Assembly: GCF_054482525.1 (NCBI RefSeq)
Contig: NZ_CM137006.1
Length of the DNA: 64,000 bases
Reading direction: 5' to 3' (one strand)
A program made the translations under genes and the position numbers. Every line of letters begins with the position of its first letter. Position 1 is the first letter of the stretch. The notes under the pieces are model-generated. The model was not told the origin of the DNA. It worked only from the letters and a program-made list of their open reading frames with translations, and ran no database searches. Below are positions 36,813 through 37,253 of this stretch, piece by piece.

Positions 36813-37253
36813 ACGTAAACTTTTTCCGGTTGTTGTCGATATCTCCATATCCCTCAACCGGAAAATAATAATACAAAAATGCTTAGCCCAACTAATAATC
36901 ACCTAATCCAAACGCCTCATTCATGTTCTGGTACAGTCGCTCAAATGTACTCCGGATACGCGGTTCGCTGATTTCCAGGACATTGTCGTCATTCAGTGAC
37001 CTGTCCCGAGTATCACGGGCCTGCGAATTCATCAAGGAATGCATTGCAGAGTGAAGTATCGAGTCACGCCATATTTCGCTATCAGGATTCTGTATGATGG
37101 TTACATCGCCCGGCCCAGGGCTGTTTAGTCATCAGCGCTTTCTGACAGTGCTGAGATTTCAACCTGTTGCAGTAAAAATGAGTAGATATAGGGCAAGTGT
37201 GCTGCCAAACCCATCTTTTACGGGGTGAAGGTAGATTTGGTTTGAAGGGTATC

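Follow-up and report, generated by a model that had tools for sequence, protein, structure and literature searches.

The 441-bp spacer that separates cscB, which encodes a sucrose permease, from the tRNA gene argW very probably combines two things: the 3' hairpin of the csc cassette, and a fossil of the genes DUF957 and DUF4942 left by a CP4-type island that formerly resided at argW. It would have no function of its own. We put the probability of this reading at roughly 0.85. It is directly supported by homology, synteny, neutral divergence, an empty attachment site (attB) and the boundaries of the csc cassette. The spacer was analyzed within a stretch of 64,000 nt of E. coli DNA, hereafter called the window.

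Primary descriptions of the variable argW-dsdCXA/csc region are said to be those of Jahreis et al. 2002 and of Moritz and Welch 2006. A replacement of dsdCX by csc at the argW hotspot, giving the order argW, csc, truncated dsdX and dsdA, has been published, and the review-level sources that cite these papers describe the region only as a recombination hotspot (PMC11251922, PMC3032704, PMC4366372). As far as these accounts of the locus go, the window shows the same arrangement, with csc in place of dsdC and the 5' part of dsdX. The finding is real but an ordinary one; its small additions to the known picture are the DUF957 piece, the exact boundaries of cassette and fossil, and the evidence of neutral drift.

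The interval between dsdA and argW

The spacer is 100% identical to the corresponding region of E. coli strain PCN033, the annotation of which was used for the local map. On the minus strand, dsdA (30120-31448) is followed by a dsdX remnant comprising the C-terminal 72 codons (31466-31684). This remnant is annotated as a partial DsdX and forms the far edge of the segment replaced by csc; the match to the intact dsdX of strain 2 HS-C stops at 31683. About 200 bp of orphan DNA without an assigned strand (31685-31885) separate it from the start of the csc region that is shared with Citrobacter. The cassette itself consists of cscR (31927-32922, plus strand), cscA (minus) and cscK (plus), the latter two placed between cscR and cscB in the PCN033 annotation, and, as its last gene, cscB (35565-36812, plus strand), a 415-aa ORF annotated as an oligosaccharide MFS transporter or as cscB in identical genomes. 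The stop codon of cscB is the left bound of the spacer (36813-37253). On its other side lies argW, encoding tRNA-Arg(CCT), on the minus strand (37254-37328; a single ARAGORN call, 63 bits against the Rfam tRNA model), with yfdC beyond it, also on the minus strand according to the PCN033 annotation.

A preliminary description of this DNA had noted neither an integrase nor a prophage at argW, only a noncoding spacer of about 440 bp before cscB. This was confirmed: the spacer measures 441 bp and holds no ORF above 50 aa, and the annotation of the 100%-identical region of PCN033 shows no integrase from emrY to fadJ. What was called a noncoding spacer also takes in, over its first 68-77 nt, the cscB 3' hairpin of the csc cassette.

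On the far side of argW, a 410-aa ORF with a GC content of 0.31-0.36 and no Pfam match was observed on the minus strand (39563-40795) between mlaA and fadL. The same slot holds yfdF in 2 HS-C and a 422-aa hypothetical protein in an enterotoxigenic (ETEC) strain, and is empty in FEA3 and ST131. Because different strains hold different genes there, it is a small variable locus.

Fragments of DUF4942 and DUF957 and their decay

In the third frame of the minus strand, 78 codons without a stop extend over 36895-37128, reading from LNSPGPGDVTIIQNPDSEIWRD to EAFGLGDY. It is exactly the peptide of the stop-free stretch from which the preliminary description had supposed a decayed gene. A stop-free run of 78 codons in some frame was seen in 29% of 20,000 composition-matched shuffles of 441 bp (P ~0.29). 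The open frame alone is no more than chance would provide, and it is homology that makes the remnant real. The Pfam family DUF4942 (PF13708) was matched at 38.3 bits against a gathering cut-off of 25 (E 1.5e-9), covering only positions 5-62 of the 190 in the profile, which intact proteins cover from 1 to 190. With tblastn, the in-frame part of the fragment (36901-37128, minus strand) aligned with codons 76-151 of intact E. coli DUF4942 proteins of 281-289 aa at 51% identity (E ~3e-20). An upstream part in a different frame (37089-37187, minus strand; frame -1) aligned with codons 38-70 at E 0.002-0.003 in a local search and contains two stop codons. Compared as DNA, 36909-37187 shares 73-75% identity with intact DUF4942 paralogues and has lost a few tens of nt internally, and blastn of 37100/37138-37187 against intact DUF4942 genes gave 75-78% identity.

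Such homology leaves next to no probability for the reading that the spacer is random intergenic DNA carrying a chance open frame and no remnant. That reading agrees with the frequency of equal runs in the shuffles and with an unremarkable GC content (0.43-0.45), and is refuted by the match to DUF4942 at profile, protein and DNA levels. A spacer resembling no protein would have spoken against the remnant proposed at the outset; the translated search matched DUF4942, an island gene.

Homology to intact DUF4942 starts at 36901 in protein and at 36909 in DNA alignments. It is separated from the csc cassette by a junction of about 20 nt (36881-36900, no strand), within which the TAG at 36892-36894 ends the stop-free run. 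The surviving codons are 38-151 of 281-289, with a frameshift, two stops and the internal deletion. The feature is an internal fragment of a DUF4942 gene rather than a complete member of the family, having lost about 37 codons at the start and about 130 at the end. A word-indexed search of 5.8 billion proteins returned only further short pieces from this locus, of 44-131 aa and for the most part named 'DUF4942 domain-containing protein' or 'hypothetical', and one 227-aa product. The latter was considered as an intact parent and rejected, as it reads across several frames of this spacer and the end of cscB. A full HMMER search returned intact relatives only at ~50% identity. No close intact parent was found in either search, nor did we find a relative of DUF4942 with a solved structure or an NCBIfam model for it.

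Directly upstream of the DUF4942 fragment, 33 nt on the minus strand (37185-37217) align with 33 nt inside a DUF957 gene (L007, 6578-6610; L006, 8702-8734). The alignment score was reached by none of 300 shuffles, both for the window and for the copy in a diverged Escherichia (L011). No protein-level match to DUF957, DUF5983 or CbtA was obtained within 36700-37400, and the segment is probably a piece of DUF957 that is visible at the DNA level only. The pieces of DUF957 and DUF4942 are collinear and on the same strand, and they join at ATCGA, which is present at both breakpoints in the intact genes. We read this join as the signature of a microhomology deletion of ~258 bp. The deletion junction is common to the window, strain FEA3 and L011. 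Between the DUF957 piece and argW, the remaining 36 nt (37218-37253, no strand) always accompany the fossil. They had no match outside csc-type genomes and are unlike the junction flanks of dsdCXA-type, ST131 and IntS-prophage genomes from the first base after argW. They may represent the edge of the old island nearest attL, or DUF957 sequence that has decayed further.

In two complete genomes, intact DUF4942 closes a module of DUF932, an antirestriction gene, RadC/JAB, DUF987, YeeU, CbtA, DUF5983, DUF957 and DUF4942; in both, this module makes up the distal end of an island beside cadC, in the pheU region. The same gene order has been described for orf52-56 of the SRL PAI (PMC6980539). Such end modules, with the YeeU/CbeA antitoxin, CbtA, DUF5983, DUF957 and DUF4942, recur in CP4-type islands (CP4-44, CP4-57, the SRL PAI, O157:H7 L0007-L0010 and the pheU islands). 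The fossil resembles them in that its pieces, the DUF957 piece being a probable one, keep the same order and strand and are transcribed away from the tRNA gene. It differs in measuring only ~320 bp, in lacking an integrase, a toxin-antitoxin pair and att repeats, and in being ~50% identical in amino acids and 73-75% in nucleotides to the intact island copies. In E. coli K-12, yeeW and yoeF are short pseudogene relics of end-module genes at the end of CP4-44. They are likewise truncated relics at a former island border, but still lie within a recognizable defective island, whereas the island in the window is otherwise gone.

Divergence of the fossil is roughly threefold that of its flanking genes: 3.4% from O157:H7 and 6.4% from FEA3, compared with ~1-2% for the csc genes and yfdC. 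In L011, the csc genes are ~90% identical to those in the window and the fossil ~70%, with further segments lost. ORF calls on the fossil vary between strains, both in length (44-85 aa) and in their N-termini. Because it diverges fast and its reading frame differs between strains, we regard the fossil as a dead pseudogene, and the pattern fits one that has decayed neutrally since before the lineages of the window and L011 split. The orphan DNA at the left junction (31685-31885) evolves in the same manner (90.5-95% identity, against 98-99% for the csc genes).

In RefSeq, PGAP calls a 60-aa 'DUF4942 domain-containing protein' at 36892-37074 on the minus strand in some genomes and nothing in near-identical others. 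The fragment is thus already labelled, its annotation is inconsistent, and a pseudogene flag would be better. One could take this product, or the 50 aa that start from an ATG at 37044, for a real, domesticated small gene, given that the 60-aa annotation occurs in many genomes and the frame is open for 78 codons. We consider this very improbable. Besides the inconsistent calls between near-identical genomes, the variable lengths and N-termini, the threefold divergence, the coverage of so small a part of the profile and the ease with which shuffles yield an equal run, most of the ORF is deleted in L011, and a consensus scan of 36700-37450 found no sigma-70-like promoter.

argW as an attachment site

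Elements that integrate at argW use its 3' end (37254-37276) as their core, which is unoccupied in the window. As the preliminary description had stated, no direct repeat of this end is present: a second copy was not found in the 64-kb window with a 21-mer and a 15-mer at up to 3 mismatches, and repeat finding over 29500-37800 gave no relevant direct repeat. In 1470 complete genomes, the tRNA gene runs without interruption into the 123 nt of spacer beside it. A further ~1160 genomes have these 123 nt joined to no more than the final 15-23 nt of argW, with the complete gene at another place in the genome; an element sits between argW and the fossil in ~44% of the E. coli genomes with the spacer. 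O157:H7 carries, in this order, argW, intS, an 8.5-kb prophage remnant, a 22-nt partial argW end (attR), the same spacer and cscB. In L011, a 15-nt attR is followed by foreign DNA. Since the attR of both O157:H7 and L011 adjoins the spacer, present-day insertions have the fossil on their chromosomal side. The argW gene of the window is an empty attB, and the missing integrase therefore needs no special explanation.

The IntS-type prophages (CPS-53/KpLE1 of K-12 and the 8.5-kb remnant of O157:H7) use the same argW 3' end as their attachment site, and in O157:H7 an identical spacer lies directly outside attR. The window differs from them in that it holds no such element and that argW and the spacer are contiguous; the fossil itself is unrelated to these phages. 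An integrase is also found beside argW in ST131, as part of a P4-like element, and, truncated, in the ETEC strain. In ST131 strain 4433 (L009, 7675-9085), sce7725/sce7726 family genes adjoin the integrase of this element, the genes of which include a tyrosine integrase, a DUF927-domain protein, an Ogr/Delta-like zinc finger, an Icd-like protein and a P2-family major capsid gene.

With regard to the location expected of an island at a tRNA gene, the fossil lies 36 nt from the argW 3' end, and homology to 2 HS-C breaks exactly at that end. In 2 HS-C, a dsdCXA-type strain with an empty argW, 95 bp separate argW from dsdC and the sequence already departs from the window at the base that follows the tRNA. 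An integrase together with intact DUF957 and DUF4942 beside the spacer at argW was found in no E. coli genome, and the stage of an integrated island is for this reason reconstructed from the fossil alone.

The position of the spacer, directly downstream of argW in about half of the E. coli genomes and right beside the point where elements integrate, might suggest functional noncoding DNA, that is, a 3' trailer or terminator of argW, a small RNA, or an integrase-binding arm at attB. Several results make this most unlikely. Rfam matched nothing but the tRNA, and a consensus scan found no minus-strand terminator downstream of argW, the sole terminator-like site being inside cscB. Other E. coli differ from the first base after argW, keep the same argW and still gain elements, and the spacer evolves faster than its flanks.

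The csc cassette and the origin of the fossil

The csc genes of Citrobacter amalonaticus (L012, 6320-11319; L016, 6323-11318) are 80-82% identical to 31886-36880 of the window, that is, to a point 68 nt past the cscB stop, and the CscB proteins of the two species are 90-91% identical. In the ETEC strain, only 36813-36889 is left beside cscB before ISEc46 begins. The first 68-77 nt of the spacer thus belong to the csc cassette, and the fossil (36901-37217) does not. Within the cassette end shared with C. amalonaticus (36813-36880, plus strand, outside the island fossil) lies a hairpin whose 11-bp stem is formed by 36822-36832 and 36855-36865 (TTTTTCCGGTTG...CAACCGGAAAA). Its fold energy is -17.3 kcal/mol (z = -3.7) and its arms are kept in C. 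amalonaticus. It has no U-rich tail on either strand and is hence not a canonical intrinsic terminator; it is probably a stability or termination element for the cscB 3' end, the role in termination being a conjecture.

One arm of the hairpin, TATCGACAACAACCGG, agrees at 16 of 18 nt with TATCGTCAACAACCTGG from the interior of DUF4942, and this likeness was considered as a recombination microhomology. It was rejected because the hairpin is csc-derived, being present in Citrobacter, and the true junction is 30-60 bp away.

ETEC strain L7_E1373 (L002, 9078-11284) showed the order cscB, 77 nt, ISEc46 (an IS200/IS605 tnpA and TnpB), a truncated integrase N-terminus and argW. The fossil was apparently lost there by an IS-associated deletion that reached into a former IntS-type prophage.

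Beyond argW, the cassette was found in two other surroundings. In C. amalonaticus, csc lies between ytfQRT-yjfF-like ABC transporter genes and an MCP gene, fbp and mpl, with no tRNA within 10 kb and no mobility gene among the large flanking ORFs scanned. In Escherichia sp. MOD1-EC7003 (L010, 159-1145 and 1437-6464), the csc genes are 95% identical and adjoin lpxP, a palmitoleoyl acyltransferase gene, instead of the dsdX remnant. Past 36845, within the hairpin that follows cscB, the sequence no longer matches the window, and the contig ends 60 bp later. The csc cassette is thus known in three genomic contexts: argW, the C. amalonaticus locus and lpxP. On plasmids of Citrobacter and Raoultella, there is no more than a cscB homologue of 71% identity that seems to be partial. 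A plasmid-borne csc cassette was also considered and rejected; near-identical matches came only from records of 0.37-4.9 Mb, which are probably chromosomal DNA filed as plasmids.

At the left end of the cassette, the preliminary description had suggested a distal att site near 31690-31930. None was detected in the search with the argW 3' end. The orphan DNA at 31685-31885 is single copy and was present only in csc-positive E. coli (2691 of 5426 genomes). It has no counterpart in Citrobacter, in the dsd locus or in the island loci, no paralogue and no att-like sequence.

The preliminary description had further proposed that the fossil belongs to the element that delivered csc. In such a scenario, a CP4-type island would have brought csc as cargo or by co-transfer, and the integrase, attR and the bulk of the island, along with dsdC and part of dsdX, would have been lost through later deletions. 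The fossil and csc do behave as one block, with 2620 junctions between cscB and the fossil, ~2628 fossils and 2691 left junctions of csc in the 5426 genomes, and the block is already present in the diverged Escherichia lineage. Chromosomes of the dsdCXA type with an empty argW have neither csc nor the fossil, and the divergence from them sets in exactly at the argW 3' end, as expected of an old attL. Tight linkage would be expected in any case for 300 bp beside csc, however. In intact islands, DUF4942 ends the conserved module; as transcription of the fossil runs away from argW and towards csc, csc comes to lie outside the canonical end of the island. The same cassette ends and hairpin occur in C. 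amalonaticus without a tRNA or a recognized mobility gene (large ORFs, 10 kb), csc adjoins lpxP in MOD1-EC7003, and no att repeat marks the left end. With csc found free of the island in two other contexts, delivery by the island was not borne out and we regard it as rather unlikely. A related version is similarly doubtful; here, csc would have been captured late, as cargo at the outer edge of the CP4-type island at argW, and the scrap of DUF957 and DUF4942 would be the only trace of the vehicle. If that were true, a major metabolic polymorphism of E. coli, that between sucrose and D-serine use, would stem from a single, ancient integration of an island that later eroded.

Most simply, the island would have occupied argW before csc came, and csc would have taken the place of the segment from mid-DUF4942 to mid-dsdX by illegitimate recombination. 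A CP4-type island, of the P4-integrase type, would have integrated at the argW 3' end, and at least three deletion or replacement events would then have cut it down to ~320 bp. One may have removed the integrase and nearly everything up to the middle of DUF957; another would be the 258-bp deletion at ATCGA across the boundary of DUF957 and DUF4942; and one would have cut DUF4942 at codon ~151, joining the fragment to the end of the csc cassette, the other side of which would have replaced dsdC and most of dsdX. Throughout, argW would have stayed intact to become the present empty attB, and later elements such as the IntS prophage of O157:H7 would have inserted between it and the fossil in other strains. 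Both the site-specific integration at argW and the order of the deletions are what we infer from the remnants.

For E. coli, the 'missing integrase' at argW is then merely an unoccupied attachment site, and the 60-aa DUF4942 protein that RefSeq lists in many genomes is a pseudogene scrap that should be flagged as such. The csc-type flank of argW keeps a datable trace of an older island, predating the split from a lineage with csc genes that are ~10% diverged. Finally, the boundaries of the cassette at ~31886-36880, together with its three contexts, may help to reconstruct how csc displaced dsdCX.
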